Assembly (NCBI GenBank): GCA_963804165.1
Contig: CAWDPO010000006.1
Coordinates: 1-64,000, forward strand
Direction: 5' to 3'
DNA length: 64,000 nucleotides
From: an uncultured delta proteobacterium
GTDB lineage: Bacteria; Desulfobacterota; Binatia; UBA9968
In this document: positions 623-25,777 of the stretch, piece after piece
How the letters are laid out: each line of letters begins with the position of its first letter
How positions within the stretch are numbered: the stretch's first letter is position 1
Translations under genes and position numbers: made by a program
The notes under the pieces: model-generated
The model's database searches: none
What the model was told of the DNA's origin: nothing
The model's input: only the letters and a program-made list of their open reading frames with translations

Positions 623-669
623 GCAGAAGAGTCTCTTGCTGACTACTGACCACTGACTACTGACTACTC

Positions 670-1416
670 TCATCGAATCACCTTGTCCGCCCGCGCCAGC
701 ACATTCGGCGGAACTACGAGTCCGATCTGTTTTGCTGCTTTCAAATTGATCACCAGTTCGAACTTCTTTGGCTGCTCCACGGGAAGATCGGCGGGCTTAG
801 CACCTTTCAAAATCTTGTCCACATACGTGGCGGCGCGCCGCTCCAACTCGGCGAAGCTCGTGCCGTAGCTCATAAGCCCTCCGGCCTCTTCCACATAGTT
901 GATTTGCGGGTATATCGCCGGAAGCCGGGTCTTTACGGCATGTTGCGCCAGCAATGTTCGCTCAGAAAGAGGCCCTGGAAAACCCAGTACGAAAACTGCG
1001 TCAGCCCGTTCCTTGCTAGCCAAAAAGACTATGGGGATCGTGGTCGTCGCTTCCTTGGCGGCCCGGGTATCTGTCGCACCAGACGTGACGATGACATCCA
1101 CTTTGAGACGCAAGAGTTCGGCCGCACGCGCTGGCGCACGACTGAAATTTCCCTCCGGCTTTGGATATTCAATGGTGATGCTTTTTCCCTCGACGTAACC
1201 GAGATCGCGCAGGCTTTGTCGGAAGGCGACGAATTGGCCCAAGGTACCGCTACCGAGAAATCCTATCCGCTGGACTTTCTTCGCCTGCTGCGCGTCGGCA
1301 GGAGAAGCAGTTGTTAGCAAGACAGTTGCCAGTAGCCAGACAAAGATTTTTCCGCTCATTAGTTTCGCTCCCGTATTATTGCCGACAACTGATAACCGAC
1401 CACTGACATCTGTCAT
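670..1416 (-). CDS. SBP unit 2 with in-frame internal deletion (likely start ATG near 1359)
   Basis: TIPIVF is joined directly to LASKERADA; the LARPGGNxTG block is missing. Confidence 0.8.
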   Translation of the reverse strand: MTDVSGRLSVVGNNTGAKLMSGKIFVWLLATVLLTTASPADAQQAKKVQRIGFLGSGTLGQFVAFRQSLRDLGYVEGKSITIEYPKPEGNFSRAPARAAELLRLKVDVIVTSGATDTRAAKEATTTIPIVFLASKERADAVFVLGFPGPLSERTLLAQHAVKTRLPAIYPQINYVEEAGGLMSYGTSFAELERRAATYVDKILKGAKPADLPVEQPKKFELVINLKAAKQIGLVVPPNVLARADKVIR

Positions 1417-1420
1417 CTAA

Positions 1421-2455
1421 TTACTCATCCGCTCTCGCCAACACATTCGGCGGAATCGTCAGGCCGATCTGCTTCGAAGTCTTTAGATTGATGAAAAACT
1501 CAAACTTCATCGGTTGCTCCACCGGGAGGTCGGCGGGCTTTGCCCCTTTAAGAATCTTGTCCACAAAAATAGCCGCTCGGCGGTACAGTTCGACAATGTT
1601 CACCCCGTAGCCGATCAGGCCGCCGGCTTCCGCGAACACCTCGCGCCCGATTGAGGGGAGCCGATGCTTTGCTGCAAGCTCCGCGATCTGCTTTTGGTTG
1701 GCGTTAAGAAAATCGTCCTCAGGGAGCGCGACGGCATCAATCCGTTGCTTGGTCATCGCTGAGAAAACGTTTTTGAATTCTTCCGCTCCGCGCACTTCGA
1801 ATCGTTGAAGCCCTATCTTGAGCAACTTCGCCGTCTGCTCCATTGCCGGTAGATTCCGGTCGTTTATGGAATTGTCCGGATTGAAGAGAACGCCGAGCCG
1901 CTGTATCCGCGGCAAGGCTTCCTTAAGGAGCTCGAGCCGTTTCGCACTGAGTTCCGGGCTAAAGTTGCTCGATCCGGTAATATTCCCTCCCGGCCGCGCC
2001 AGGCTGGCGACAAAACCAAAAGCGACCGGGTCGCCGCTGGTTACCATTACGACGGGAATCGTCGTGGTAGCATTTTTGGCTGCACGGATCCCAGGTGTCC
2101 CGGCGGTCAGGATGACGTCAACGTTGAGGCGAACCAGTTCGGCTGCCAACTCGGGGAGGCGTTCAAACTTGCCCTCGGCCCAACGAGACTCGATGACAAG
2201 ATTCTTGCCTTCCAGATAACCCAAGTCACGCAGGCCCGCCCGCAGTGCTTCCATTCGGCCTGCGTTGCTGGCAGCGGAGGTGGGACCCAGGAAACCGACC
2301 CGAACGATTTTCGCCGTTTGCGCATGGGCCACAGCGCCACAGATCGAGAAGGCGAAACCGATGGCGAAGATCCCTACCCATTTTGGATTTTGGATTTTCG
2401 ATTTCCGATTGTCGGAGGAAAAGGCAGGAAGCCGGATCGAAAATATTTTACTCAT
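1421..2455 (-). CDS. SBP unit 3
   Basis: Intact 344 aa ORF with family motifs. Confidence 0.9.
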   Translation of the reverse strand: MSKIFSIRLPAFSSDNRKSKIQNPKWVGIFAIGFAFSICGAVAHAQTAKIVRVGFLGPTSAASNAGRMEALRAGLRDLGYLEGKNLVIESRWAEGKFERLPELAAELVRLNVDVILTAGTPGIRAAKNATTTIPVVMVTSGDPVAFGFVASLARPGGNITGSSNFSPELSAKRLELLKEALPRIQRLGVLFNPDNSINDRNLPAMEQTAKLLKIGLQRFEVRGAEEFKNVFSAMTKQRIDAVALPEDDFLNANQKQIAELAAKHRLPSIGREVFAEAGGLIGYGVNIVELYRRAAIFVDKILKGAKPADLPVEQPMKFEFFINLKTSKQIGLTIPPNVLARADE

Positions 2456-2506
2456 GTTTTTGTCTCCTTGAGCCCAATCGAAAATCTAAAATCGGCAATC
2501 GAAAAT

Positions 2507-3493
2507 TCACTTGATGACTCTGTCCGCTCGCACCAGCACATTCGGCGGAATCGTCAGGCCGATTTGCTTGGCGGCTTTAAGATTAATCACGAACTCGAAC
2601 TTCTTCGGCTGCTCCACCGGTAGATCCGAGGGCTTAGCGCCTTTGAGGATCTTGTCGACATAAGTGGCGGCGCGGCGGTATAAGTCGGTAACGCTCACGC
2701 CGTAAGACATAAGCCCGCCGTCTTCCACATATTCCGGCGCGTGGTATATCGCCGGGAGCCGGCTCTTTACCGCGAGGGCCGCAATCTGTTTTCGCTGAAG
2801 ATTGAAGACGCCGCCCTGCAGCACAAGGACTGCGTCAGCACGCCCTTTGCGCGCCTCTCGGAATGCAGTCTCAATATCCTTGGGACCTGGCACGTCTAGG
2901 TATTGAAGGTGTAACGTTGAACACCCCTGCGGCGAGCTCCATCTCTTTTAACACTTGTGCGGTGCCCGTGGTGGTCGAAGTCCCGAGTACAGCCACCCGG
3001 GCGAGCCTGGGAACGATCTCCTTCAGAAGCTCCAGTCGTTTTCCGCCCATCTCTGGGGCAAGGTTGGACAAGCCAGTAATGTTCCCGCCAGGTCGCGCAA
3101 GGCTGGCGACGACCCCGCTCCCAACCGGATCAGCATCGTTCGCCATGACAATGGGAATCGTGTTCGTCGCTTCCTTGGCGGGACGGATTGATGCCGGACC
3201 GGCCAAGACCATGACGTCTACCTTCAGACGCACAAGTTCGGCGGCGAGCGCTGGCAGGCGATCTAGTTTTGCCTCTGCATATCGATACTCAATGAGAATG
3301 TTTTTCCCCTCCACGTAGCCAAGCTCGCGCAGACCCTGCCGGAATGCGTCGAGGCGGGCCGAGATAGCGGAAGGAGAGGTAGCACCTAGGAATCCTATCC
3401 GGGCGACTTTCGTTGGCTGCTGCGCCTGGGCGGAAACACAAAGTTATCAGCAAGACAGATGTCAGTAACCAGAAAAGAGATTTTGAGATTCAT
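2507..3493 (-). pseudogene. SBP unit 4, frameshifted (or sequencing error)
   Basis: Fragments 2871-3314 and 2507-2893; mature part nearly identical to unit 18. Confidence 0.8.
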
Positions 3494-3545
3494 TGTCTTC
3501 CCACCTGTTCCTTACTGGTAACTGATCACTGCCCACTGACCTCTG

Positions 3546-4535
3546 TCACTTGATCACCTTATCCGCTCTCGCCAACACATTCGGCGGAATCGTCAGTCCG
3601 ATCTGCTTCGCCGTCTTCAGATTGATCACCAACTCGAATTTTGTCGGCTGCTCGACCGGCAGGTCGGCGGGCTTGGCTCCTTTCAGGATTTTGTCCACGT
3701 AATATGCGACGCGCCGGTAGCTGTCCGCGAAGTCCGCCCCGTAGGACATGAGCCCGCCGGCATCTACAGCGTCTTTTCTGCCGTACACCGACGGTAACCG
3801 GCTCTTTAACGTAAGGCCCGTGATCCGTTTTTGGTTAGCAGTCATTAGCGCCGCTCGTGGTCACGTAGAGTCCATCCGGGCGGTCCTTGTTTAGCGCAGC
3901 GAAGACCTTCTCGAAACCGTCCGCGTCTCGTACCTCCCAAGCCTGAACAGTCAGCCCCAGCGCGCGCGCCGCGACTGGGAGATCCTCTTTCACCTCGAGT
4001 ACAGCGGCCGGAGTGGCCCGCTCGTAGAGAACCGCGATACGGGCAACTTTGGGAACCGCTTCCTTGAGTAACTCCAGCCGCTTCCCGCCTAGTTCTCTGG
4101 AAAGGGTTGTAAGCCCGGTGACATTGCCGCCGGGACGGGCAAGGCTCTCAACAAGGCCCGACTCGACAGGATCGGCCGAAATGCCCATCATAACGATGGG
4201 AATCGTCTTGGTCGCATTCTTGGCCGCCCGGATTGGGCGCGTTCCTGGCACCACGATGATATCAACTTTGAGACGCACCAGCTCAGCCGCAAGGCCAGGT
4301 AGCCTATCTGGCTTCCCCTCCGCATATCGGTACTCGATGGCGATGTTCTGTCCTTCTATGTAGCCAAGCTCGCGCAGAGCCACCCGAATTGCCTCGGAAC
4401 GGGTGGACTCACCAGCTGGATCGGATTGACTAGATACCCTATCCGCGCGACTTTCTTCGGCTGTTGCGCCTCGGCAGAAAAGCAAAGCGCTAAGAGCAAA
4501 GTGCCAAGCGCAAGACCAAAGAATTTTCTTCTCAT
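3546..4535 (-). pseudogene. SBP unit 5, frameshifted
   Basis: Fragments 3835-4485 and 3546-3845; MRRKFFGLALG leader starts at 4535. Confidence 0.8.
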
Positions 4536-4590
4536 GAATCTACTCCTGTGTTTTTGCCGCTGCTCCTTGCTATTTGCTCCAAGTTCCCTG

Positions 4591-5619
4591 CTACTTGATC
4601 ACTCTGTCCGCTCTCACCAGCACATTGGGCGGAATCGTCAGGCCGATCTGCTTAGCCGCTTTTAGATTGATTGCGAACTCAAACTTAGTCGGCTGCTCGA
4701 CAGGAATGTCGGCGGGCTTGGCGCCTTTTAGAATCTTGTCGACCATCGATGCAGCGCGCCTAAAGGATTCGGCTCGGTCCGGGCCGTAGGACATCAAGCC
4801 GCCACTCTCGACAAAATCTCGCCGAGCGTAAATCGCAGATAGTCGATGCTTTGCCGCGAGTTGTGCGATCTGTTTCTGATGAGCGCCGGCCATTGAGTCC
4901 TGAGGCACAGCGAGCGCTAGGATACGAGCCTTAATTGCATCCTTGAACGCGCCCTCATATTTATCAGCCGTGCTTACTTCCATGGAATGAAGCTGCAAGC
5001 CCAGTTCTCTCGCCGGGTGTAGGCTTTCTTTCCATTGTTGGAGCGAGGCTGGATCCTGCGGATTCCACAGCACCGCAACGCTGGAGAGCTTGGGTACGGT
5101 TTCCTTGAGCAACTCGAGCCGCTTGCCAGACAATATCGCCGCGACGCTGGTGAACCCCGTGATGTTGCCCCCCGGGCGCGCCAGGCTGTCAACCAACCCG
5201 GCCGAGACGGGATCAGTCACTCCAATGACGATGATAGGGATCGTTCTGGTAGCGTTCTTGGCGGCTAAGGCAGCCGCTGTAGACGAGGTGATGAGTATAT
5301 CAACCTTCAGACGGAGCATCTCATCAACCAGCGCGGGAAAACGGTCAAATTTATTATCAGCGGATCGATATTCGATGACGATATGCTTGCCCTCGACATA
5401 GCCCAATGCCCGTAACTCTCGCCGCAATATCTCAGTCGAAGCGTCTCGCTCAGCGAAGGAGCCTCTGAGCAACCCAATCTTTTTTACCTTTGCCTGCTGC
5501 TGCGCCTCGGCGGAAACAAAAGTTATCAGCAAGACAGTTATCAGTAACCAGAAAAGCGATTTTGAATTCATAGTCTTTCCACTTCTTTCTACTGGTAACT
5601 GATCACTGACCACCGACAA
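4591..5619 (-). CDS. SBP unit 6 (likely start ATG 5571)
   Basis: Intact ORF, signal peptide MNSKSLFWLLITVLLITFVSAEAQQ. Confidence 0.9.
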   Translation of the reverse strand: MSVVSDQLPVERSGKTMNSKSLFWLLITVLLITFVSAEAQQQAKVKKIGLLRGSFAERDASTEILRRELRALGYVEGKHIVIEYRSADNKFDRFPALVDEMLRLKVDILITSSTAAALAAKNATRTIPIIVIGVTDPVSAGLVDSLARPGGNITGFTSVAAILSGKRLELLKETVPKLSSVAVLWNPQDPASLQQWKESLHPARELGLQLHSMEVSTADKYEGAFKDAIKARILALAVPQDSMAGAHQKQIAQLAAKHRLSAIYARRDFVESGGLMSYGPDRAESFRRAASMVDKILKGAKPADIPVEQPTKFEFAINLKAAKQIGLTIPPNVLVRADRVIK

Positions 5620-5622
5620 CTG

Positions 5623-6706
5623 TTACTTGATCACCTTGTCCGCTCGAAACAGCACCGACTGCGGAATATTGAGGCCGATCTGTTTCGCCGCTTTCAGATT
5701 GATGATGAACTCAAACTTGGTCGGTTGCTCCACTGGTAAGTCAGCAGGCTTCGCACCCTTCAAAATTTTGTCGACGAAAACGGCGGCGCGCCTGAAGAGT
5801 TCAGCCTGGTCGGCGCCGTAGGACATCAAACCACCGCTCTCGACAAAGTCTCCCCGATAATATATCGCCGGCAAGTCGATTTTTTCTTGCCAGCTCGACG
5901 ATCCGTTTTTGATTAAGAATTGATAAGTCGCGCTCTGACGTCACAGCGAGAGCGGCGCGCCCGCTTTATTGCCTCATGTGAACGCATTGTCTAATTGGTC
6001 CGCACGGCGCACTTCCATGGAATGAAGTTGCAAACCGAATTCTCCCGCCGGCAAGCTGGCTTTCTTTCCATTGCGGTTACGTCGCTCGGACCACTGGGAA
6101 TCCCATAGCACCGCGACGCGGGAGAGTTTGGGAATGGAATCCTTGAGTAACTCCAGCCATTTGCCAGCCAACAGTCCGCGCAATAGTGGTGAATCCAGTG
6201 ATGTTCGCGCCAGGCTGAGCTAGGCTATCAACCAATCCAGATCGACAACAGGATCACCACGGCCCCCAAGAAAACTATGGGAATCGTCCTGGTAGCATTT
6301 TTGGCAGCTAGTGGAGTCATTCAAACCACCGGCAACAATGATATCGACTTTGAGACGGACCAATTCTTCCGCAAGGGCAGGGAGGCGGTCGAGCTTACCT
6401 GTCCGCGTATCTCGACTCGATCACTATGTTCTTACCCTCAAGATAACCAAGTTTACGCAACTCCGGCAGAATTAAGTCGATTCTCGTGGTTGAAGCGGCA
6501 GAACTGGGCGAGAGCCAGCCGATCTTAGGTATTTTACCTTGCTGCTGTGCCTGAGCCACAGCGCCACACATTGTGAATGTGACAGCGATAGCGACAATCC
6601 CACCCCATTTTAGATTTTGGATCCCTCGGTAAGACTCAGGACAGGTTTTCGATTTTGGATTGTCGGAGAAAGAACCCAAAAATTGTTTGAGCAATGTGTT
6701 GTGCAT
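5623..6706 (-). pseudogene. SBP unit 7, multiple frameshifts
   Basis: Fragments 6395-6706, 5974-6183, 5623-5874. Confidence 0.8.
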
Positions 6707-6750
6707 CAGATTTTTCCCCTAATCGAAAATCGGCAATCGAAAATCTAAAA

Positions 6751-7742
6751 TCATTTGATGACTCGATCCGCTCGCACCAGCACATTCGGCGGAATCGTCA
6801 GGCTGATCTGCTTGAGCGGTTTTCAGATTGATGATCAGCTCGAACTTCATCGGCTGCTCTACGGGCAGTTCCGCTGGGTTTGGCACCTTTCAAAATCTTG
6901 TCTACGTACCATTGGCGGCACGCCTGTATTGATCAGCATTGTTGGTCGCATAGGACACAGTCCACCGGCCTCTACGTACTCATTTCCCGAGTACATTGAG
7001 GGCAACCGATTTTCTATGGCCAGGTCCGCGATCCGTTTAGCATAACGGTTAAACACGGGCGCCCTATCCGTAATGAGCGCACTCACGCGCCCCTGGGTTG
7101 CGGCTTTAAATGCGCCGTACAAATCGGGACTCGCGCCTCGTAGCTCTAGAGATTGCACCTGGACCTTTAGCGCCCGCGCGGCAGCCTGGTATTCTTTTAG
7201 GGAACGAGCCGCTGTCGCACCGTCCGCATGCCACAGGACGCCGACGCGTGATATCCCCGGCACCATTTCCTTGAATAGTTCCAGGCGTTTGCCGCCTAGG
7301 TCTCGGCCAAGCGTGGAGAGCCCGGTAACATTGCCTCCGGGCGCGCCATGCTATTGACTATCCCGGCCGCGACAGGGTCTGAATTAGTCACCATGACGAT
7401 GGGGATCGTCTTGGTCGCCTTCGTGGCAGCGTGAATAGCGGTTGAAGTTCCCAAGACCAAAGCATCGACATTGAGTTGCACAAGTTCAGTTACGAGGCCT
7501 GGGACCCGGTCCAGCTTTCCCTCAGCGTAGCGATACTCAACCCGGATGTTTTTCCCCTCGTGATAACCGAGATCTCGGAGACCTTGGCGAAACGCCTCGA
7601 CGAACGGTGGGGGACGAGATGGATCACCGTTTGTCGACAGGTATCCGATCCGCGGGATTTTCGTTGGCTGCTGCGCGCAGACGGGAAAGCAGAGCGCAAA
7701 GAGCATGGCGTAAAGAGTAAGGACCGTGATTTTTTTCTTCAT
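6751..7742 (-). pseudogene. SBP unit 8, multiple frameshifts
   Basis: Fragments 7296-7742 and 6859-7266 plus conserved tail ending at 6751. Confidence 0.8.
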
Positions 7743-7762
7743 GTCTTTTTTCTGTCTCGATT

Positions 7763-7870
7763 TACTTGCGCCGTGACACTGCAGCCAAGGACGGCGCAGT
7801 GTTCCGCAAACACCGCAAACGCCTCGCCCGCCAAGCCCGCATGCTCATCACGGAGCAAGCGCGCTCGTGA
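7763..7870 (+). pseudogene. Probable C-terminal remnant of an antitoxin
   Basis: YLRRDTAAKDGAVFRKHRKRLARQARMLITEQARS*; its TGA overlaps the toxin GTG (GTGA); no N-terminal DNA-binding domain. Confidence 0.45.
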
Positions 7871-8202
7871 GGCGGGGCAAGATCTACCGAACGCGCGAAC
7901 GGGTTCTGGAGCATGGAGCAAAGCCCGGTTTTTACGTCGTCGTATCTCGAACCTTTGTCGCGGAACACGAAGATGTCTCGACCGTGATCTGCGCTCCCGT
8001 TTACGGTGAAGTCCTCGGTCTTACAACGGAGGTCGTGCTCGGACCAGAAGATGGACTGCCACGGACTTCCGCCATCCGCTGCGATTTTCGTACACTGATG
8101 TTCAAGAGCAAGCTCACTCACTTTGTGTCCACATTGTCGGCATTCAAACTCGCCCAACTCAACCGCGCCTTTGCTCACGCTCTTGAACTCCCGTCACGAT
8201 AA
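7867..8202 (+). CDS. PemK/MazF-family toxin
   Basis: MRRGKIY...KPGFYVVVSR...VICAPV...GLP..SAIRCD pattern, 111 aa. Confidence 0.85.
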   Translation: MRRGKIYRTRERVLEHGAKPGFYVVVSRTFVAEHEDVSTVICAPVYGEVLGLTTEVVLGPEDGLPRTSAIRCDFRTLMFKSKLTHFVSTLSAFKLAQLNRAFAHALELPSR

Positions 8203-8280
8203 GGTGCAGACAATATCGTTACCGTATTCACGTATTTTGGATTTGTTTTTCCCAACTCGAAACCCAGAACTCGAAACGCC

Positions 8281-9330
8281 TTATCGAATAACTCGGTCCG
8301 CCCGCGCCAGCACGTTAGGCGGAATCGTAAGACCAATCTGCTTGGCTGCTTTCAGATTGATGATGAACTCGAACTTCTTTGGCTGCTCCACCGGGAGATC
8401 GGCGGGCTTAGCGCCCTTCAAAATCTTGTCGACATACGTAGCGGCGCGCCGAAATAAGTCGTTATAGTTAGTGCCGTAGTACATGAGGCCGCCGGCGGCG
8501 ATAAATTCCGGATGGAAGTATGTTGCGGGGAGCCGATGCTTGACCGCAAGCTCGACAGCTTGTTTTCGCTGGTTATTGAGGATGAGGTTCCCCAGCAGAA
8601 GGAGCGCGTCGGCACGTTCCTCGGTAGCGGCTCGGAACGCAATCTCAATATCCTTGGGACTTACGACGCTTAGATAGTGAACCTTGATGCCAAGCGCCTT
8701 CGCCGCGAGTTCCACTTCTTTCAAATTTTGCGTGTTACCCGGTTCCTCGTTGTTGCCAAACACGGCCACGCGCGCGAGCTTCGGCACGATCTCCTTGAGA
8801 ATCTCCAGTTGTTTTCCGCTTAGCTCAGGGCGCTGCGCTGACAATCCGGTAATGTTCCCCCCGGGTCGCGCAAGGCTGGCGACGAACCCGTTGCCAACCG
8901 GATCGTCATCAAAACCCATGACAATCGGAATCGACGTGGTAGCGTTCTTGGCGGTACGGGTTGCTATCGGACCTTGGGTGACGATGACGTCTACCTTGAG
9001 GTTCACGAACTCGCTCGCAAGCGCGGGGAGGCGATCGAGTTTTCCTTCCGCCGAGCGCCACTCAACGAGGATGTTTTTCCCCTCCTCGTAGCCGAGCTCG
9101 CGCAGTCCTTGGCGCAGCGCCTCGGTGCGGGCAGGGCTGTTGGAAAATGGGTTGCCGGTCAAATACCCTATCCGGGGAAGTTTCGTCGGCTGCTGGGCCC
9201 GTACTTCAACCCCGCACATTGCGAATGTGATGACGAGAGCAACAATCCCCACCAATTTTGGATTTTGGATTGCCGATTTTGGATTATCGGAGGAAGAAAC
9301 CAAAAACTGATTCAGTAGTCTTTTGATCAT
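8281..9330 (-). CDS. SBP unit 9
   Basis: Intact 349 aa ORF. Confidence 0.9.
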   Translation of the reverse strand: MIKRLLNQFLVSSSDNPKSAIQNPKLVGIVALVITFAMCGVEVRAQQPTKLPRIGYLTGNPFSNSPARTEALRQGLRELGYEEGKNILVEWRSAEGKLDRLPALASEFVNLKVDVIVTQGPIATRTAKNATTSIPIVMGFDDDPVGNGFVASLARPGGNITGLSAQRPELSGKQLEILKEIVPKLARVAVFGNNEEPGNTQNLKEVELAAKALGIKVHYLSVVSPKDIEIAFRAATEERADALLLLGNLILNNQRKQAVELAVKHRLPATYFHPEFIAAGGLMYYGTNYNDLFRRAATYVDKILKGAKPADLPVEQPKKFEFIINLKAAKQIGLTIPPNVLARADRVIR

Positions 9331-9384
9331 GTGCTTTTCCGAAGTCCGAATTTCTTACTGTTGCCTGTTGCCTATTGCCTTGCT

Positions 9385-11557: not shown

Positions 11558-11574
11558 TTGTTTTTCTCCTCAAT

Positions 11575-12582
11575 CTAAAATCGGCAATCGACAATCCAAA
11601 ATTCATTGATGACTTTGTCCGCCCGCGCCAGCACATTCGGCGGAATCGTCAGGCCGATCTGCTTGGCCGTTTTCAGGTTAATTACCAATTCGAACTTCTT
11701 CGGTCGTTCGACGGGCAAATCGGCGGGCTTAGCGCCTTTGAGAATTTTATCCACGTACTCGGCGGCGCGCCGGTACTGCTCCGAACGGTCGCCTGCGTAA
11801 GTCATCAGTCCGCCCGCCTCGACGGACCGCGTGTTCGGAACCATCGCCGGAAACCGGTGTTTTATCGCTAGCTCTATGATTTGTTTTTGATTAGCGGTGA
11901 AAAACCCGCTGCCATCCACCAGAAGCGCTTCAGCACGCTTGTTGGCTGCGGCTTGAAATACTCCTTCGATTTCGTCAGACGTTTTCACTTCTAAGGATTG
12001 AATCCCGACCCGCAAGTGGCGAGCCACGGTCTCAATCTCTCTCAGGTTGCCGGCCGCGACTGGGCTGGTCGGACTCCAGAGAAAGCCGACCCGCGAGAGC
12101 TTGGGAATAATTTCCTTGAGCAGTTCTAACCGTTTTCCGTGTGTCTCGCCGCCCATAGAAGTCAGCCCAGTGATATTTCCACCGGGGCGCGCAAGGCTCG
12201 CGACGAGCCCGCTCCTAACTGCATCGCTGGTACTTGCCATGACAAGGGGAATTTCTTTAGTCGCGTTTTTAGTAGCCCTGGCTGCTTCATTGCCGATGGC
12301 AACGATAACTTCACAATCGAGGCGGACTAGCTCGGCGGCAAGCTCTGGCAGTCGCTCGACCTTCCCGTCAAAGTACCTGTATTCGATTGCGATGTTCTGT
12401 CCCTCGATGTGGCCGAGCTCGCTCAAGCGTTCACGAAACGGCTTCATGCTAGTCGCTGAAGTAGAAGCGGTGTTTCCGAGATAACCGATTCGCGCGACTT
12501 TCTTTGGCTGCTGCGCCCACGCCGGACTTAAAACAGCTAGAATCAACGTGGCGAGTATGAGCGCGGAGATCTTTTTATTCAC
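11575..12582 (-). CDS. SBP unit 12 (normal stop apparently lost by a 1-nt deletion; reads into junction repeat)
   Basis: Ends ADKVINEFWIVDCRF instead of ADKVIK*. Confidence 0.85.
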   Translation of the reverse strand: MNKKISALILATLILAVLSPAWAQQPKKVARIGYLGNTASTSATSMKPFRERLSELGHIEGQNIAIEYRYFDGKVERLPELAAELVRLDCEVIVAIGNEAARATKNATKEIPLVMASTSDAVRSGLVASLARPGGNITGLTSMGGETHGKRLELLKEIIPKLSRVGFLWSPTSPVAAGNLREIETVARHLRVGIQSLEVKTSDEIEGVFQAAANKRAEALLVDGSGFFTANQKQIIELAIKHRFPAMVPNTRSVEAGGLMTYAGDRSEQYRRAAEYVDKILKGAKPADLPVERPKKFELVINLKTAKQIGLTIPPNVLARADKVINEFWIVDCRF

Positions 12583-12643
12583 GCTTCCTCCAAGACAAAC
12601 CCATCAGCAATCGCTCCAGCAGGGCGCATGACAGGTATAAAAA

Positions 12644-13590
12644 TCATTTGATTCCCAATTCCCTCTGCGCCTCTCGGAGAATCGAGAGATCGGCAACTTC
12701 ACTCAAGGCAACCTCACGATCAATTTTCATAAGCCGTTTGGTGTCATCGAGGAGTCTGCGGAAACCATCCTCCGGCATGCTGCCGTCATTATTAAAACCT
12801 TTGATAAAAGAATCGTACGCCGCGCTGGCGACCTCTTTGTCATTCTATACGTGCTCATCAGCACCGGGATGGTTCCATCGCGATTCGCGCGCATGTAGCG
12901 GTTGGCTTTGATACCCGCGCGAATAACGCGCTTGACCTCGTCCGGTTTCTCTTTGATTTTCCTGATGCTGGCCGTCAGACCGCTGAAGGGATAGGTAAAG
13001 AGATCTTCCGATCGGACGATGACTGGAAAGCCCATCTTCCTGCCAAGGTAATCGGTGGGAACCGTGGCCATCGTGGCATCGAGTAGTCCTTGCTGCATTC
13101 TGATGTAGCGGCCTTCGTCTGAACCTGCGACGGCCCACTTCACATCCTTGTCCGGGTCGAGACCGAAGTGCTTGACGATAAGCCGCCCGACCAGATCGGG
13201 ACCGCCACCGAATGCGCGAACCCCGATGGTCTTGCCTTTAAGATCTTTGACGGTTTTGAACTCTGGCCGGCTCTGCAGCATGAAATGTGGCGTCGGGCGG
13301 TAGCACGCAGCGATCCTAAGCGGCAAACCCTGAAGGATCGCGCGCAGGGCGGAGCCAAAACCGCTGAAGTAATCAGTGTCGCCGTTACTGAGAGCGACGT
13401 TTGCCACCGGGCCCGAGATTATAACCAGTTCCGCGTCGAAGCCTTCCTCTTTTAGAAATCCTCTTTTCTGCGCCAAATGCATGGTGAAGTGCGCCGCGTC
13501 TGCCGGCGTGCTGATTCTGATCTTGTCCGCCGCGTGGATCGACGTGTGGAGAAGACAAATAGCGAGCAACGCCACAAATATTTGCTTCAT
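12644..13590 (-). CDS. NMT1/SsuA-type substrate-binding protein, frameshift near the C-terminus
   Basis: Signal peptide, AQKRGFLKEEGFDAEL, KTVKDLKGKTIGV motifs; shifted tail ends ELGIK*. Confidence 0.8.
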
Positions 13591-13645
13591 GTATTTTTTT
13601 CTATCTCCATCCACTTGACACTCGACACTTGACACTCGCCCCTTC

Positions 13646-14639
13646 TCACTTGATCACCTTATCCGCTCGATACAGCACGATTGGCGGAATTGTCACACCG
13701 ATCTGCTTCGCTGTTTTCAGATTGAATACCAGCTCAAACTTCGTCGGCCGCTCTACCGGCAGATCGGCAGGCTTGGCTCCCTTGAGGATTTTGTCCACGT
13801 AAGTGGCTGCCCGCCGGTAGATGTCCGCGAGGTCCGCCCCGTAGTACATGAGCCCACCGACATCTACCGATTCTCTGGTGCTGTATACCGACGGTAACCG
13901 ACGCTTTAACGCAAAGCCCGCGATCCGTTTTCGGTTATCACGCGTTAGCGGGCCCGCTGGCACGTAGAGTCCATCCGGGCGCTCCTTGCTCGAACGCAGC
14001 GAATACCTTCTCGAAATTGTCCGCGCCTCGTACCTCCCAGGGATGAATGGTCAACCCCAGCGCACGCGCCGCGACTGGGAGAACCTCTTTCAGCTCGAAT
14101 ACACTGGCCCGACTGGTCGGATCGTGGAGAACCGCGACACGGACAACTTTAGTAACGGCTTCTTTGAGCAGCTCGAGTCGCTTACCGCCTAATTCAGCGC
14201 TAAGATTTGTAATGCCGGTAACGTTGCCGCCGGGACGGGCAAGGCTATCAACAAAGCCCGCCTCGACAGGATCGTCGGAGAGTTCCCCATCACAATAGGA
14301 ATCGTCTTGGTCGCATTCTTAGCCGCCTGGATCGGCCCGCTTCCTCCCAGCTGCCACGATGAGATCAACCTTGAGATGCACTAGCTCGGCCGCAAGCTCA
14401 GGGAGCCGATCAAGCTTCCCCTCCGCATATCGGTACTCGATGGCAATGTTCTGTCCTTCAATGTAGCCAAGCTCGCGCGGAGCGCGCCGAATTGTCTCGG
14501 AACGAGCGGAGGCAAGAGATGGCTCGCTCGACGTTAAATACCCTATCCGAGGGACTTTCTTCGGTTGCTGCGCCTGAGCGGGAAAGCAAAGCGCAAAGAG
14601 CAAAGTGCCAAGCGCAAGACCAAAGAATTTTCTTCTCAT
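13646..14639 (-). pseudogene. SBP unit 13, frameshifted
   Basis: Fragments 14319-14639 and 13646-13963. Confidence 0.8.
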
Positions 14640-14694
14640 GAATCCACTCCTGTGTTCTTGCCGCTGCTCCTTGCTATTTGCTCCATGCTACCTG

Positions 14695-15673
14695 CTATTT
14701 GATCACCTTATCCGCCCGCGCCAGCACGTTGGGCGGAATCGTCACGCCGATCTGCTTGGCCGTTTTCAGATTGATGACAAGCTCAAACTTCTTGGGACGC
14801 TCTACGGGCAGGTCCCAGGTTTTGTGCCCTTTAGAATTTGATCGACGTACTCAGCTGCGCGGCGGAATTGATAAGGGCGATCATCGAGTAAGTCATCAGT
14901 CCACCAGCCTCGACGTATCGAGTGTTGTTATACATCGCTGGAAGTCGACTCTTCGCCCCTAGCTCTAAGATTCGTTTTTGGTGAAAGGCGAAGAGGCCGC
15001 CTCCCGACACCAAAAGCGCCTCAGCGCGCTTCTTGGTTGCAAGTCGAAATGCTGCATCGAAGTCGTCAGGCCCTTTCACCTCGATGGCTTGAAGCTCTAA
15101 ACTTATTGACCGCGCAATGGTTTCAATCTCTTTAACTTGGACATCCACGCCTGGATTCGTCGGACTCCAGATGAAAGCGACCCGCGAAAGTTTGGGAACG
15201 ATCTCTTTGAGTAGCTCGAGCCGTTTTCCGTCCAGTTCAGTGCCAATTGAAGTCAACCCCGTGATGTTTCCGCCGGGACGCGCGAGATCCGAGACGATCC
15301 CACGCCGGAGAGCATCCCCGCCAAACGCCATAACAACCGGGACCGTCTTGATCGCGTTCTTGGCAGCCTGCGCCGCTTCAGTCCCGGATGTAACGATAAC
15401 GTCACAGTTGAGACGGACTAACTCGGCGGCAAGCTCTGGCAGAAGCTCAACCTTTCCCTCCCAAGACCGGTGCTCGATTGTGATGTTCTGCCCCTCGGTG
15501 TAGCCGAGTTCGCGTAAACGTTCACGAAATGGTTTCATGCTATTCGCTTCGACCGAAGCGCTGTTCCCTAGATAACCTACGCGCGCGCCTTTCTTTTGCT
15601 GCTGCGCATCGGCATATGAGCCAGTAGTCAGTAGAGCACTGGTCATTAGGCAGATCCCGATTTTTCGCTTCAT
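14695..15673 (-). pseudogene. SBP unit 14, frameshift in the C-terminal part
   Basis: ORF 14831-15673 plus out-of-frame conserved tail. Confidence 0.8.
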
Positions 15674-15702
15674 GTTTTTCCTTTTGGCTTTTACTTTTGC
15701 CT

Positions 15703-16680
15703 TTACCTAATCACCCGATCCGCTCGCGCCAGCACATTCGGCGGAATCGTCAGACCGATCTGCTTGGCGGCTTTCAGGTTGATCACCAGATCGAATTTAG
15801 TCGGCTGTTCGACGGGCAGATCCGCAGGCTTTGCGCCTTTGAGAATCTTGTCGACATAAGTTGCGGCGCGCCGGTCCAAATCGCGAATGCTCGTGCCGTA
15901 ACTCAGAAGTCCGCCATCGTCGACACGTGACGAATCGAAATAGATCGCCGGGAGCCGGTTTTTTATCGCGAGACTCGGAATCGGTCGCGAGATATGGGAC
16001 GGAGTATTCAGTACGATGACAGCCTCAGCGCGCCCTTTACTCGCCGTCTGAAACGCAACTTCAATATCCTTAGGATGACCTATTTCTAAGTATTGGACTT
16101 TTACGCCGAACTGATTTGCGGCGAGCTGCGTGTCTTTTAGCGATTGGGAGTTACCCGGATTGCTTGACGTGGCGAGGACGGCCACGCGCGAGAGCCGGGG
16201 AACGATCTCTTTGAGAAGCTCCAGACGCTTGCCGTTTAACTCCGCTGAGTAGGAGGACAGTCCAGTGATGTTCCCGCCGGGCCGCGCAAGGCTGGCAACA
16301 AAGCCATTGCCCACGGGATCAGCATCCTGCGCCATCACAATGGGAATCGTCGAAGTTGTTTGCTTAACGGGACCGGTCACGCTAGGTCCAGCCGTGACGA
16401 TGACACTAACCTTGAGATCCACGAGTTCTGCGGCGAGCCGCGGCAGACGATCGGCCTTTCCATCGGCAAATCGGTACTCAACCAGGATGTTCTTTCCCTC
16501 TATGTAGCCAAGCTCGCGAAGGCCCCGCCGGAAGACTTCGAACCGACGCGCCTGCATGGCAGCAGAGCTGGCTGTTACGTACGCTATCCGCGGGATGTTC
16601 GCAGGCTGCTGCGCCTCGACAGAAAAAACAGTAAACAGAAAGACAGTTAGCAGTAGGCAGGAAAGAATTTGTTTGATCAT
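15703..16680 (-). CDS. SBP unit 15
   Basis: Intact 325 aa ORF. Confidence 0.9.
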   Translation of the reverse strand: MIKQILSCLLLTVFLFTVFSVEAQQPANIPRIAYVTASSAAMQARRFEVFRRGLRELGYIEGKNILVEYRFADGKADRLPRLAAELVDLKVSVIVTAGPSVTGPVKQTTSTIPIVMAQDADPVGNGFVASLARPGGNITGLSSYSAELNGKRLELLKEIVPRLSRVAVLATSSNPGNSQSLKDTQLAANQFGVKVQYLEIGHPKDIEVAFQTASKGRAEAVIVLNTPSHISRPIPSLAIKNRLPAIYFDSSRVDDGGLLSYGTSIRDLDRRAATYVDKILKGAKPADLPVEQPTKFDLVINLKAAKQIGLTIPPNVLARADRVIR

Positions 16681-16727
16681 GCGTCTTGCTCCCGGTTTTC
16701 TTGCTGCTCACTGCTTACTGCTCACTG

Positions 16728-17837
16728 TCATTTAATAACTCTGTCCGCTCGCGCCAGCACATTCGGCGGAATCGTCAGGCCGATCTGCTTCGCCGTCTTC
16801 AGATTGATCACAAGCTCAAATTTCGTCGGCTGCTCCACCGGAAGGTCCCCCGGCTTTGCACCCTTCAGGATTTTGTCGACGTAATATGCGACGCGCCGGT
16901 AGATGTCTGCTAGGTCCGCGCCGTAGGACATGAGCCCGCCGGCATTTACGAATTCTCTGGTGAAGTACATCGACGGAAGCCGACTTTTTATCGCAAGGCC
17001 TGCGATTCGTTTTTGGTTAATATGCATTCGCGAGCCCCCGCCAAGCACGTAGAGACCATCCGGACGCTGCTTACTCAGCGCGGCGAATACCCGCTCGAAA
17101 TCGTCCGCGGCTCGTACCTCCCAAGACCTAACAGTCAACTTCAACGCGCGCGCCGCGACCGGGAGAGCTTCTTTCACCTCGCGTGCATTACCCAGAATGG
17201 CCGGATCGTAGAGAACCGCGACACGGGCAAGTTTGGCAACCGTCTCTTTGAACAGCTCCAGCCGCTTCCCTATTAGTTCTCTGCCAAGGTTTGTAAGCCC
17301 AGTGACGTTGCCGCCGGGACGGGCAAGGCTTTCGACTAGGCCTGCCTCGACAGGATCGTCCCCGCCGCCCGTCATAACGATGGGAATCGTCTTGGTCGCA
17401 TTCTTGGCCGCCCGGATCGGTAGGATCCCGCCTGCTACCACGATGAGATCAACCTTGAGACGCACCAGCTCGGCCGCAAGCTCAGGGAGCCGATCGGGCT
17501 TCCCCTCCGTATATCGATACTCGATGGCGATGTTCTGTCCTTCTATGTAGCCACGCTCGCGCAGAGCCAGCCGAATTCCCTCGGAACGCGTGGAGTCACT
17601 CGCCGCGTCGGCCGCCGCTAGATACCCTATCCGAAGGACTTTCTTCGGCTGTTGCGCCGATACCACAGCCCCACACATCGCGAATGTGATAACGAGAGCA
17701 ACAATCCCCACCATTTTGATTTTCGATTGCCGATTTTGGATTGTAGATTGAGAACAGCACAATCGAATCGGAATAGTTTCATTCATGTATTTTTCCCTAA
17801 TCCAAAATCTAAAATCGAAAATCCAAAATCTGTTCAT
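16728..17837 (-). CDS. SBP unit 16 (true start probably near 17787)
   Basis: Intact ORF. Confidence 0.9.
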
Positions 17838-18820
17838 TTGATGACTCTGTCCGCTCGCGTCAGCATTCTCTGCGGGATCGTCAGACCGATCTGTTTAGCT
17901 GTCTTGAGATTGATCACTAGCTCGAACTTCGTCGGCTGCTCGACCGGCAGATCCGCTGGCTTGGCGCCTTTTAGAATTTTGTCGACGTAAGTGGCTGCAC
18001 GCCGCTCCAAGTCGGTAAAGCTCACGCCGTAGCTCATTAGCACGCCGGCTTCAACAAATTCTGCCTGTGGTAGATCGCTGGGAGCCGGTTTTTTACCGCG
18101 AGTTCGTCAATCTGCTCTTCGGTGAGAATCGAGCGACGCGACTCGCTCAGCACGAGGACTGCGTCAGCACGCCCCTTGCTCGCGGCTCGGAATGCGGTCT
18201 CAATATCCTTGGGACCTCGTATATCGAGGAACTGAAGCTTCACCCCGAACGCCCCTGCGGCGCGTTCCATCTCTTTTAACGTTTGCGCGTTGCCCGGGTA
18301 GGTTGAAGTCCCGAGGACAGCCACGCGCGAGAGCTTAGGAACTGATCTCCTTCAGAAGCTCCAGTCGTTTGCCGCTTAACTCCGGGGCAAGGGTTGACAA
18401 TCCAGTGATGTTCCCGCCAGGCCGCGCAAGACTGGCGACGAACCCATTTCCAACAGGATCGGTATCCTGCGCCATGACAATGGGAATCGTAGAGGTGGCC
18501 TCCTTGGCGGCACGGGTTGCTGGCGCACCAGCCGTGACGATGACGTCTACCTTGAGCCGCACTAGCTCGGCCGCAAGCGCTGGGAGACGATCGAGGTTTT
18601 CCTCAGCGGATCGCCATTCAATGACAACGTTCTTTCCCTCGACGTATCTAAGCTCGCGCAGACCTTGCCGGAATGCCTCGATGCGGGCAGCGCTAGCGGA
18701 AGGGGAGCTTCCAACTAGGAATCCTATCCGGGCGACTTTGATTGTCTGCTGCGCGGCGGCAGGAACGCAAAGTGTAAAGAGCATGGCGCAAAGCGTAAGA
18801 CGCATGACGTTTTTACTCAT
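17834..18820 (-). pseudogene. SBP unit 17, frameshifted
   Basis: Fragments 18335-18820, 18037-18324, 17834-18043. Confidence 0.8.
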
Positions 18821-18920
18821 GGTCGTTCGCCCTGGGAATTGAAGCAGTGCAGTACTGGAGAAATGGTGTTAATCGATTCGTCCCAACATCCATGACTCCA
18901 ATACTCCATCATCCAGTTTT

Positions 18921-19970
18921 TCACTTGATCACCTTGTCCGCCCTCACCAGCACATTCGGCGGAATCGTTAACCCGATCTGCTTCGCGGCTTTCAGATTGA
19001 TGATGAACTCGAACTTCTTTGGCTGCTCCACTGGGAGATCGGCAGGCTTGGCGCCTTTCAGAATCTTGTCCACATACGTGGCGGCGCGGCGGTATAAGTC
19101 GGTAACGCTCACGCCGTAAGACATAAGCCCCCCGTCTTCCACATATTCCGGCGCATGATATATCGCCGGGAGCCGGCTCTTTACCGCGAGGGCCGCAATC
19201 TGTTTTCGCTGAAGATTGAAGACGCCGCCCTGCAGCACAAGGACTGCGTCAGCACTCCCTTTGCGCGCCTCTCGGAATGCAGTCTCAATATCCTTGGGAC
19301 CTGGCACGTCTAGGTATTGAAGGTGTAACTTGAACACCCCTGCGGCGAGCTCCATCTCTTTTAACACTTGTGCGGTGCCCGTGGTGGTCGAAGTCCCGAG
19401 TACAGCCACACGGCCCAGGCTGGGAACGATCTCCTTCAGAAGCTCCAGTCGTTTTCCGCCTATCTCTGGGGCAAGGTTGGATAAGCCAGTAATGTTCCCG
19501 CCGGGTCGCGCAAGACTGGCGATGACCCCGCTCCCAACCGGATCAGCATCGTTCGCCATGACAATGGGAATCGTGTTCGTCGCTTCCTTAGCGGGACGGA
19601 TTGCTGCCGGACCGGCCAAGACCATGACGTCTACCTTCAGACGCACAAGTTCGGCGGCGAGCGCTGGCAGGCGATCTAGTTTTGCCTCTGCATATCGATA
19701 CTCAATGAGAATGTTTTTCCCCTCCACGTAGCCAAGCTCACGCAGACCCTGCCGGAATGCGTCGAGGCGGCCCGAGATAGCGGACGGAGAAGTAGCACCT
19801 AGGAATCCTATCCGGGCGACTTTGGTTGGCTGCTGCGCCCGTACTTCAACCTCGCACATCGCGAATGTGATGACGAGAGCAATAATCCCCACCAATTTTG
19901 GATTTTGGATTGCCGATTTTGGATTGTAGGATTGAGAACAGCACAATCGAATCCGGAATAGTTTCTTCAT
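18921..19970 (-). CDS. SBP unit 18
   Basis: Intact 349 aa ORF. Confidence 0.9.
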   Translation of the reverse strand: MKKLFRIRLCCSQSYNPKSAIQNPKLVGIIALVITFAMCEVEVRAQQPTKVARIGFLGATSPSAISGRLDAFRQGLRELGYVEGKNILIEYRYAEAKLDRLPALAAELVRLKVDVMVLAGPAAIRPAKEATNTIPIVMANDADPVGSGVIASLARPGGNITGLSNLAPEIGGKRLELLKEIVPSLGRVAVLGTSTTTGTAQVLKEMELAAGVFKLHLQYLDVPGPKDIETAFREARKGSADAVLVLQGGVFNLQRKQIAALAVKSRLPAIYHAPEYVEDGGLMSYGVSVTDLYRRAATYVDKILKGAKPADLPVEQPKKFEFIINLKAAKQIGLTIPPNVLVRADKVIK

Positions 19971-20014
19971 GTATTTTTCCCTAATCCAAAATCTGAAATC
20001 GAAAATCCCGAATG

Positions 20015-21010: not shown

Positions 21011-21070
21011 CGTTGTTTTCCTCTGACGCGGAGCCTATCCTGAGCATGTCGAAGAGCCTCACCACTTACC

Positions 21071-22070: not shown

Positions 22071-22120
22071 GAATTTTTTTTCTCCTTGCTGACCACTGAC
22101 TTCTGACCGCTGATCACTGT

Positions 22121-23109: not shown

Positions 23110-23168
23110 GAATTTTCTCCTGGTGATCTCACGCTCTCTGCTCCTTGCCCTTTGCTCCATGCTCCCTG

Positions 23169-24159: not shown

Positions 24160-24182
24160 TTCGCCTCCGAACAATGATAACC

Positions 24183-24212
24183 TTGTGCCGACCGGCGTGG
24201 CTGGTATAGAAT
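24183..24212 (+). promoter_or_regulatory. Candidate sigma70 promoter for hicBA
   Basis: TTGTGC-N18-TAGAAT followed by GGAGG and ATG at 24233. Confidence 0.45.
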
Positions 24213-24232
24213 TCTTGCTTGGAGGTATCGTC

Positions 24233-24662: not shown

Positions 24663-24737
24663 TCGCTGCATCGATAATTTTTTCTCCGCCTTGCTATTGC
24701 CGATACAGATCGAATCTCCGTCCATAACGCCTTCTGC

Positions 24738-25719: not shown

Positions 25720-25777
25720 ATCTTTTTCTCTGTGTCGATCTGCATCTCACTCTGCGCTCGACAGTCCCCGCAACCTC

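Follow-up and report, generated by a model that had tools for sequence, protein, structure and literature searches.

Results

The PF04392 array and its junctions

The window, that is the whole stretch of 64,000 nucleotides that was analysed, carries an array of about 30 PF04392 (ABC_sub_bind) paralogues arranged head to tail (1..33403, minus strand; tblastn and Pfam). All genes concerned in the junction hairpins are located on the minus strand. Thirty C-terminal ends of PF04392 paralogues were listed in the array by tblastn, and all units of the array except two were PF04392 paralogues (tblastn, Pfam). Several of the genes are frame-broken, and the frame breaks seen by tblastn fall in the mature part. 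About 140 PF04392 copies were found genome-wide, in a genome that is 81% complete. An Rfam gathering scan of the whole window gave no matches. Neither a sigma-70-like promoter nor an intrinsic terminator was predicted at the minus-strand junctions, which fits long transcripts. Over 1300-11200, contigs of one sequencing run (share 0.05, only presumably RNA) aligned as short segments, most of them 90-95% identical and derived from related organisms, and they gave no information on transcript ends or expression.

The spacers behind the stop codons consist of tandem 7-nt repeats of several unit families, and the 7-nt periodicity was also detected in the signal-peptide codons (junction listing, TRF). 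The units of the arms are 7 nt and sometimes 8 nt long (TRF period counts and unit lists), the arrays are short (about 3-5.6 imperfect units with variant positions), and at least five unrelated unit families exist among the arms. The signal-peptide codons of the next gene are often an inverted copy of the post-stop repeat. The proximal array starts at the upstream stop codon or takes it in, and the distal array is translated in frame. It encodes the basic n-region in the TTTTSGA family (..NRKSKIQNPK..) and the hydrophobic core of the signal peptide in the CAGT and CTTTGCG families. The ribosome-binding site (RBS) and the start codon are topologically inside the loop.

In the CAGT family, the post-stop arm at 5592..5621 (5' arm in the RNA; all arms are on the minus strand) begins 1 nt after the stop codon 5623-5625. 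In the MFE fold it pairs with the coding arm at 5521..5551, which encodes WLLITVLLIT (start codon 5571; z -2.98). Other CAGT arms locate at 3509..3546 (partner about 3438-3478 in the next signal-peptide codons, 39 spacer-to-coding base pairs, z -2.22) and at 1396..1414 (partner about 1321-1340 in the WLLATVLL codons, start codon 1359, z -2.47). The GCAGT-family arm at 16704..16729 overlaps the TGA stop codon and faces about 16627-16660 in the CLLLTVFLFT codons (z -2.03).

TTTTSGA-family arms were located by repeat search at 2476..2509 (partner 2381-2410 in the SDNRKSKIQNPK codons, start codon 2455, z -0.50), 6724..6751 (partner 6607-6665, also in the fold), 10449..10478 (partner 10363-10392, z -0.94), 17799..17830 (partner 17714-17749, z -2.58) and 19983..20013 (partner 19895-19925, z -1.64). 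The inverted repeats detected were 2391-2410/2490-2509 (20 nt, 90%), 2386-2403/2476-2493 (18 nt, 94%), 6643-6665/6724-6746, 10363-10392/10449-10478, 11455-11472/11567-11584, 17714-17742/17799-17827 and 19895-19925/19983-20013. The last five pairs confirmed the statement of an earlier note on this DNA that further units look similar. The AGCAAGG-family arm at 4561..4591 (partner 4482-4512 in the ALGTLLLALC codons) gave a fold that was not above its shuffles (z +0.15). The strongest stem of the array was that of the AGCARGG-family arm at 23128..23170 (partner about 23044-23085, z -4.17); this stem falls outside the range marked in the earlier note (1300..20013).

Complementarity of the two arms, which the earlier note had seen in unrelated sequence families, was borne out across these families. 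The arm pairs that it had named exist, and the stems 5592-5621 x 5521-5551 and 16704-16729 x 16627-16660 were found in MFE folds, but at some junctions the arms are mismatched (e.g. 682, 9397, 15718, 22162 and 29938).

Folding and pairing of the arms

Spacer-to-coding pairing (at least 12 bp in the MFE structure) was predicted at 24 of the 28 family junctions of the window. The predicted stems have 18-41 pairs with many internal mismatches (an RNase III site takes a duplex of some 20 bp or longer), and in the 10 folded junctions the stem starts 0-6 nt after the stop codon (MFE). A z score below -2 was reached at 5/28 junctions (mean z -1.04) versus 1/28 mid-gene controls (mean -0.22). For the named examples, z scores were calculated from 200 dinucleotide shuffles each. 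When the four pairs exemplified in the earlier note were compared with controls in this way, 5592/5521 and 16704/16629 folded better, but 2476/2381 and 4561/4482 did not.

RNAduplex on 80 x 108 nt pieces was dropped as too noisy (shuffles about -40 kcal/mol), and local alignment scores were used instead. Smith-Waterman complementarity was significant (p ≤ 0.05) for 9/23 units of the window and 32/101 genome-wide. Cognate spacer/coding pairs reached -30.0 kcal/mol versus -25.2 kcal/mol for non-cognate pairs, and none of 20000 permutations was as good. Comparing G.U-tolerant with A.C-tolerant scoring gave no clear strand signal. These results indicate that the junction hairpins are real, but less uniform than first described.

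At the same time, the accessibility of the translation start was predicted. The unpaired probability of the Shine-Dalgarno sequence (SD) was 0.38-0.39 in hairpin members versus 0.42 in non-hairpin PF04392 members, and that of the AUG was 0.52-0.64 versus 0.45. The placement of RBS and start codon in the loop, as the earlier note had put it, is thus correct in topology, but the predicted accessibility does not differ from that of family members lacking a hairpin, and occlusion of the SD or start codon by the hairpin is not supported.

The earlier note had also taken the change of sequence with kept pairing as a sign of selection on structure. Cognate arms of the TTTTSGA family had no advantage in pairing over non-cognate ones (35.5 versus 37.3, p 0.93, n = 20). 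Mismatches in this family are mostly transversions at the variable unit position (84/135), and 20 of 30 TTTTSGA 5' arms face a coding arm of TTTTSGA type. The arm types disagree at about one third to one half of the junctions that have a typed arm. In the CAGT family, canonical pairs amounted to 84.8% versus 79.7% in shuffles (0/500 shuffles reach it), and double-change cells to 13 versus 8.4 (19/500); weak pairwise covariation was observed in this family only. G.U mismatches exceeded A.C mismatches in the 29 start-spanning hairpins (35 versus 16), for which the arm composition could be the cause, and the counts were 50 versus 64 in 70 short-loop hairpins. Some of these signals, namely the better overall pairing of cognate arms, the CAGT figures and the G.U excess, point to selection on pairing and speak against a repeat-family reading. 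Our results showed that the covariation is one of whole repeat families and not of single base pairs: the claim of kept pairing stands at the level of the repeat family, but compensation at base pairs is absent in TTTTSGA and weak in CAGT.

These data bear on the explanation that the hairpins are purpose-built regulatory elements of RNA, in which the terminating ribosome would melt the basal stem (coupling) or RNase III would cut the polycistron. It agrees with the stems of 18-41 bp beginning 0-6 nt from the stop, whose base would be within reach of a ribosome halted at the upstream stop codon, with the long transcripts suggested by the junctions devoid of predicted promoters and terminators, with the weak CAGT covariation and with the G.U excess of 35 to 16. 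We nevertheless consider it rather doubtful. SD and AUG are unpaired to about 0.4 and 0.5 alike in hairpin and non-hairpin paralogues, just 5 of 28 junction folds beat their shuffles at z < -2, the best-formed family has no cognate specificity, and the mismatch in type affects about one third to one half of the typed-arm junctions. Besides, if RNase III cleaved the distal arm, the coding sequence of the downstream gene would be lost.

The CTTTGCG-type signal peptide was found without a complementary spacer in 23/31 rows, and it also occurs in another family of the order; because of this occurrence without the spacer, the CTTTGCG coding arm may be the older part. The comparison of junction identity with mature-domain identity and the Leu codon usage of the arms are circular, with groups defined by motifs, and were used descriptively only.

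Distribution of the hairpins

An inverted partner within 200 nt was found for 285/1145 arrays of period 7, 8 or 14-16 in the genome, versus 15/1145 in flanks 5 kb away, and 183 distinct inverted heptamer/octamer hairpins were obtained genome-wide. The loop is shorter than 45 nt in 124 of these, none of which locates at the N-terminus of the PF04392 family; among the 59 hairpins with longer loops, 26 do. The start-spanning form is almost confined to the PF04392 gene family. Short-loop hairpins follow the stop codon by a median of 12 nt and precede the next start by 25 nt (70 co-directional cases, crude ORF calls). The 93 intergenic ones comprise 70 co-directional, 16 convergent and 7 divergent cases, with a background of 4499/1178/1168 from the same crude ORF calls. 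In the window, GTTCAAG-family hairpins of this short-loop class are present outside the array at 44725..44775 and between two other genes at 47461..47521. The two arms normally stand between the stop codon and the next ribosome-binding site, and in PF04392 arrays they are spread around the translation start. The earlier note had missed the genome-wide occurrence of this kind of hairpin and its published repeat class.

Of the 6 genomes of the same family (G000 among them), 5 carry the TTTTSGA hairpin pattern; in the other families of the class it was detected in none of 55 genomes. GTTCAAG pairs were detected in 2/61 genomes, both of one genus. The start-spanning form is conserved in sister genera, with variant arms in relatives, and the hairpin pattern was absent from the proteobacterial homologues examined.

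Exchange of junction modules

On a quick tree of the mature domains, the signal types are scattered, and the starred branches require no fewer than 4, 5 and 7 changes for the three types. The mature-domain blocks 2506-3426 and 18920-19839 are 95% identical; both begin exactly at the stop codon, and they carry different junction modules. Among blocks of 88-99.5% identity, 27 of 78 ends fall within 50 nt of a stop codon. Our results showed that junction modules have been shuffled among the PF04392 paralogues.

It follows to ask whether the hairpins are themselves recombination sites in DNA, attC-like or repeat-promoted, at which breakpoints would give rise to gene duplications and to the exchange of export-signal modules within the set of about 140 paralogues. 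The departure of signal type from the mature-domain tree, the 95% block whose end coincides with the stop codon and which is followed by different modules, and the block ends near stop codons are all consistent with such sites. However, the very conserved C-terminal codons before the stop could alone explain the breakpoints, and BLAST blocks also end where fast-evolving repeats start.

Integron attC sites are imperfect inverted repeats at each gene boundary of a one-directional array; they have R''/R' core sites (RYYYAAC ... GTTRRRY) and extrahelical bases, and their cassettes are unrelated ORFs that mostly lack promoters. The junctions here share the inverted repeat at the gene boundaries of such an array. 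In contrast to attC, each paralogue here has its start codon within the repeat, the arms are built of tandem units (by eye), and no IntI was found: with the integron integrase profile TIGR02249, the best score in the genome (81% complete) was 104.9 bits versus a cut-off of 265, and no match lay on the contig of the window. The attC-like sites suggested in the earlier note were rejected on this missing integrase and on the cassettes, which in all but two units are PF04392 paralogues rather than unrelated ORFs.

REP/BIME elements, and REPINs with RAYT transposases, are abundant extragenic hairpins behind stop codons; REPs are fixed palindromes and not tandem units. The hairpins here likewise follow stop codons, and the genome contains RAYT-like genes, with 18 PF01797 matches (Y1-transposase). 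The flanks of these genes carry inverted repeats of the different GGGGTCA type, and none of the 18 has any of the 183 hairpins within 700 nt. An identity with REP/REPIN was rejected on this ground. Taking the integrase, the paralogous cassettes and the transposase flanks together, a recombination-site nature of the hairpins appears quite improbable.

Discussion

We think it probable that each junction hairpin consists of heptanucleotide simple-sequence repeats in two inverted arrays, with the junction inherited or recombined as a module and with no compensation of single pairs. The whole junction (arm, RBS, start codon, arm) would be passed on and recombined among paralogues as one module. The sequence would then change with pairing kept because both arms share a repeat family and the junction moves as a unit. 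The anatomy, the enrichment over chance, the genome-wide class, the restriction to one lineage and the module shuffling were demonstrated by the results above. The frequent formation of inverted pairs is left unexplained by this reading.

In a polycistronic transcript, the arms of such repeat pairs may form an imperfect stem of about 20-40 bp that begins at the stop codon and closes 13-45 nt into the next ORF, and the upstream ribosome may melt its base. If there is an effect, the likeliest one would be that of an intercistronic stem-loop that blocks 3' exonucleases or serves as a processing site. Such a role in RNA is a serious possibility, short of being the expected outcome; that the hairpins have no selected function is likewise possible, if somewhat doubtful.

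A stronger view is that the junction module is a selected, exchangeable cassette, whose stem ties about 140 orphan binding-protein genes to the translation or processing of their upstream neighbour and whose repeats let export signals be rebuilt or swapped between paralogues. We consider this view unlikely; if true, it would mean repeat-driven making and regulation of signal peptides.

In Neisseria opa genes, perfect and numerous CTCTT repeats in the leader-peptide region make the coding sequence phase-variable. Similarly, a short repeat whose length is not a multiple of three encodes a hydrophobic part of the signal peptide in a paralogous family here. A change in the number of 7-nt units by slipped-strand mispairing could switch single paralogues on or off, and the position of the repeats in the leader-peptide codons of a large exported-protein family, with many copies frame-broken, would suit this mechanism. 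Unlike those of opa, the arrays here have few and imperfect units and an inverted copy as partner; with only about 3-5.6 units with variant positions, and with the observed frame breaks in the mature part of the genes, phase variation is extremely unlikely.

Whatever the function, the locus shows that parts of a working signal peptide can come from simple 7-nt repeats and that N-terminal modules of this kind pass from one paralogue to another, which matters for the origin of export signals and for start-codon annotation in uncultured bacteria rich in repeats. Should the stems act in RNA, they would show how a very long series of near-identical genes is divided up or coupled post-transcriptionally. 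Because the repeat class has already been described, a specialist will be moderately surprised; in the open-access literature, we found no account of inverted heptamer pairs enclosing a start codon or encoding signal peptides.

Comparison with known systems

TAACTGA direct repeats occur in Beggiatoaceae, cyanobacteria and Bacteroidetes, and were proposed as sites for a single-strand nucleic-acid-binding regulator in Beggiatoaceae (MacGregor 2015, PMC4679880). This heptamer is nearly the same as the unit of the CAGT family (TCAGTTA/TAACTGA-like), and, like the arrays here, the repeats in that report overlap the stop codons of upstream genes, adjoin starts and are in some cases inside ORFs at protein ends. 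In that report they are direct repeats with a single indirect pair, whereas here the upstream repeat has the opposite orientation and an inverted copy lies in the coding sequence. The heptamer arrays here could be thought of as binding sites for such a regulator, with the hairpin incidental: reverse-complementing TCAGTTA, the unit of the CAGT family, gives TAACTGA, the Beggiatoaceae repeats sit just upstream of start codons (PMC4679880), and in Nostoc, heptamer repeats close to start codons reportedly affect expression (bioRxiv 10.1101/2022.06.06.494920). We regard this as very improbable, since each of the at least five unrelated unit families would require its own binder and the strong excess of inverted pairs would be left unexplained; CsrA was not found, which in a genome only 81% complete is weak evidence.

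In cyanobacteria, STRR hairpins lie between hupS and hupL; transcript stability or translational coupling has been proposed for them (PMC2670836), and both proposals would also suit a regulatory RNA hairpin at the junctions here. Like those at the junctions, the STRR hairpins are built of 7-bp repeats between the cistrons of an operon. They differ in phylum and in units, and they are described as wholly between genes.

The paired GGGAATC repeats of Xanthomonas are also similar. These heptamers are mostly between co-oriented ORFs, with 16% convergent and 7-8% divergent, and 70-75 convergent pairs (Rehm et al. 2015, PMC4692102). As here, they are tandem 7-nt units that are mostly intergenic and close behind the upstream ORF, mainly between co-oriented and rarely between divergent genes, and often in two inverted arrays able to form a stem-loop; array length and sequence vary between close relatives with the type of the pair kept (PMC4692102). 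Unlike GGGAATC, the several unit families here are not G-rich, so no G-quadruplex is expected, and at the PF04392 genes the two arrays surround the RBS and start codon, with the distal array translated. In conclusion, the junction hairpins are a local form of a class of repeats that has been described before in other bacteria, as STRR and as the paired Xanthomonas heptamers.

Structure of the junctions

All junctions were inspected from the last conserved codons of one gene through the next gene. Every post-stop spacer of the window array is built as a short tandem repeat of period 7 nt, and the spacer units fall into mutually unrelated families: (C/G)AGTNNT, GATTTTS (with a GATTGCC variant), AGCARGG, TGAGGCG, GGCAAYA, GAGTGTC and the 8-nt GGAGTNNT. 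The opening letters of the first unit are often the stop codon itself (TGACAGT, TGATTTT, TAGCAGG, TGAGGCG). Early in the next gene, the codons often form an inverted copy of the spacer that is likewise 7-nt periodic, and a plausible Shine-Dalgarno sequence and ATG lie between the two arms. The inverted copy of GATTTTS is translated as a basic stretch (..SDNRKSKIQNPK..) preceding the hydrophobic core, while those of CAGT (WLLITVLLIT) and AGCARGG (LALGTLLFALCF) are translated as the hydrophobic core. Several junctions are mixed, pairing the spacer of one family with the coding arm of another. Inserted in the GATTTTS-type coding arm at window 6607-6665 and 11455-11520 is another small element (..CCTGTNCTGAGC..GTCGAAGNATCC..), which is translated in frame as ..KTCTELSRS.. 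and has more copies on contigs C38, C37, C10, C19, C33 and C14.

Folding of the junctions compared with chance

The earlier note had observed that the spacer and coding arms are complementary, and this was confirmed in part. Twenty-eight family junctions were folded from the stop codon to +100 and compared with dinucleotide shuffles and mid-gene controls. At least 12 spacer-to-coding pairs were present in the minimum-energy structure of 24 junctions, yet the fold energy was only modestly better than that of the shuffles (mean z -1.04, z < -2 in 5/28; mid-gene controls, mean z -0.22, z < -2 in 1/28). Ten junctions, labelled by the end coordinate of the upstream gene, were also scored individually. 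Among the four arm pairs named in the earlier note, two folded better than shuffles (5635, z -2.98; 16743, z -2.03) and two did not (2522, z -0.50; 4606, z +0.15). The other six gave z of -4.17 (23181), -2.58 (17849), -2.47 (1424), -2.22 (3558), -1.64 (20030) and -0.94 (10499). A repeat search of the window recovered GATTTTS-family inverted pairs at six junctions. With 200 shuffles, local complementarity reached p<=0.05 in 9/23 window units and 32/101 units genome-wide, and p<=0.005 in 15 of these 101. Cognate spacer/coding pairs averaged -30.0 kcal/mol versus -25.2 kcal/mol for non-cognate pairs, and the observed mean was reached in 0/20000 permutations.

Pairing at the level of repeat families

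The covariation analysis covered 165 distinct N-termini, left after removing duplicates from 101 of this genome and 71 of relatives' loci; six of these rows came from the unpublished genome G005, and no claim depends on those rows alone. The arm types were associated: 20/30 GATTTTS 5' arms stood opposite a GATTTTS-type coding arm, and 7/14 CAGT 5' arms opposite a CAGT-type one. Within the GATTTTS family, pairing scores of spacers with their own coding arms were not higher than with coding arms from other members (35.5 vs 37.3; p 0.93; n=20). The CAGT family gave a weak signal (cognate 22.1 vs non-cognate 19.3, p 0.047, n=7). Its 18-pair alifold helix was 84.8% canonical versus 79.7% in shuffles (0/500 reached that) and held 13 double-change cells versus 8.4 (19/500), a signal overstated because the sequences are related. 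The 29 significant hairpins contained 622 Watson-Crick pairs, and their mismatches were 84 transversions, 35 G.U and 16 A.C, with the transversions falling on the unit's variable position. Pairing is therefore maintained per repeat family rather than per base pair. The covariation read earlier as selection on structure holds for families only.

Gene array and module shuffling

The array genes all lie on the minus strand. A tblastn search whose query was the intact unit at 1421-2455 (344 aa; Pfam match to PF04392 ABC_sub_bind with E 5.7e-47) found about 30 head-to-tail copies over window 1-33403, several of them split across two frames. Many units span at least two frames, among them 2507-3492, 3546-4539, 5623-6706, 6751-7742 and 9385-10439; real pseudogenes and sequencing errors are equally plausible causes. 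In the whole genome (7.5 Mb, 46 contigs, the window being C6:1-64000) tblastn gave 216 HSPs, 78 near full length; 144 contained the C-terminus, so the family has roughly 140 members, mostly arrayed on C6, C38, C37, C16, C5 and C7. A 138-aa ORF at window 7762-8178 (-), with no Pfam match and preceded by its own GTTTCGAGTT-type repeat spacer, breaks up the array. A multi-copy tyrosine recombinase (284-310 aa), whose score falls short of the cut-off for integron integrases, is located next to or within other arrays of the family (C18:37335-38144, C23:251854-252663 and 259745-260554, C5:4111-4908, C37:1802-2599, C10:35735-36532, C41:60032-60838).

A quickly built maximum-likelihood tree of 62 mature domains showed the signal types scattered, and its starred branches imply a minimum of 4, 5 and 7 changes for the three types. 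The mature-domain blocks 2506-3426 and 18920-19839 are 95% identical and each begins exactly at the stop codon of its own gene, the latter ending about 130 nt inside its gene. Their N-terminal modules differ (CAGT-type and GATTTTS-type, respectively). Their downstream spacers also differ. In family regions, 27/78 ends of blocks with 88-99.5% identity fall no more than 50 nt from a stop codon. This clustering could be due to strongly conserved C-terminal codons or fast-evolving repeats, without a special site.

Hairpins in the genome and in relatives

Period-7 and period-8 arrays are abundant in the genome (TRF). An inverted copy within 200 nt was found for 285/1145 merged arrays versus 15 in control flanks, giving 183 distinct hairpins. 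None of the 124 with loops <45 nt, and 26 of the 59 with longer loops, lie at a family N-terminus; the remaining long-loop hairpins are mainly MITE-like or wholly intergenic. With ORFs called crudely, the short-loop hairpins fall between co-directional, convergent and divergent genes in 70, 16 and 7 cases (background 4499/1178/1168), at a median of 12 nt after the stop and 25 nt ahead of the next start. Their mismatches are balanced (50 G.U vs 64 A.C), and in 54/70 the G-rich arm precedes the other. GATTTTS hairpins also exist as wholly intergenic elements, one of them taking up the entire space between a pair of genes on C17. Two apparently cytoplasmic enzymes (C2:226759-227607 (-), C18:35995-37041 (+)) have GATTTTS-type repeats, open in frame, at their annotated-looking N-termini; their true starts probably lie downstream of the repeat. 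MITE-like elements (about 120-220 nt; for example C18:14398-14526, C30:44988-45115, C45:155056-155193, C46:26398-26541) carry terminal inverted repeats of CGAAATCCGAAAC type, and their interiors are conserved in part.

The PF04392 family is expanded within the same genus (up to ~100 matches per genome), where the same spacer and signal types were found again. The GATTTTS hairpin pattern occurs in 5/6 genomes of the same taxonomic family, covering two genera and counting this genome, and was not found in 55 genomes from other families of the class; a GTTCAAG pattern occurs in 2/61 genomes, of one genus. Proteobacterial homologues of the binding protein have ordinary upstream regions and signal peptides, and members in this genome with their own promoter-like upstream region are without repeats. 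These results indicate that the hairpins are part of the repeat biology of the lineage, not of the protein family.

Possible mechanisms and known systems

The proposal of attC-like (integron) recombination sites was not supported: no integron integrase was found in this 81% complete genome (best 104.9 bits vs a cut-off of 265), and the cassettes are paralogues. The genome has 18 matches to Y1 (IS200/RAYT-type) transposases, mostly ORFs of ~316-324 aa with GGGGTCAG-type inverted repeats on both sides (window 35722-36303 (+), weak at 23.2 bits; C6:99647-100597; 16 other places). A REP/RAYT origin was not supported either: for 0/18 was one of the 183 hairpins located 700 nt away or less, and the inverted repeats flanking these genes are of a different, GGGGTCA type. 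One Y1 match adjoins an AGGGTCA heptamer array.

An RNA function of the junction hairpins is possible. As to translational coupling, the folded stems begin at the stop codon, but predicted accessibility of the Shine-Dalgarno sequence and AUG did not differ between hairpin members and paralogues without hairpins. Prediction gave neither a sigma-70-like promoter nor an intrinsic terminator at the minus-strand junctions, weak evidence that is compatible with long transcripts.

Our search of open-access literature found no paper on repeat pairs in which a start codon is enclosed and one arm is translated as signal peptide. Heptameric repeats are reported to be over-represented in bacterial intergenic DNA; those of Xanthomonas lie close 3' of ORFs, mainly where the neighbouring genes are co-oriented, with 70-75 of them in convergent pairs that have stem-loop potential (PMC4692102). 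In cyanobacteria, STRR repeats make up hairpins in the hupS-hupL interval, for which stability or translational coupling was proposed (PMC2670836). The TAACTGA repeats of Beggiatoaceae are reported to share bases with stop codons and to lie ahead of start codons (PMC4679880), and the CAGT-family unit in this genome reads TAACTGA on the opposite strand. In conclusion, the junction hairpins belong to a known repeat class, in variant form.
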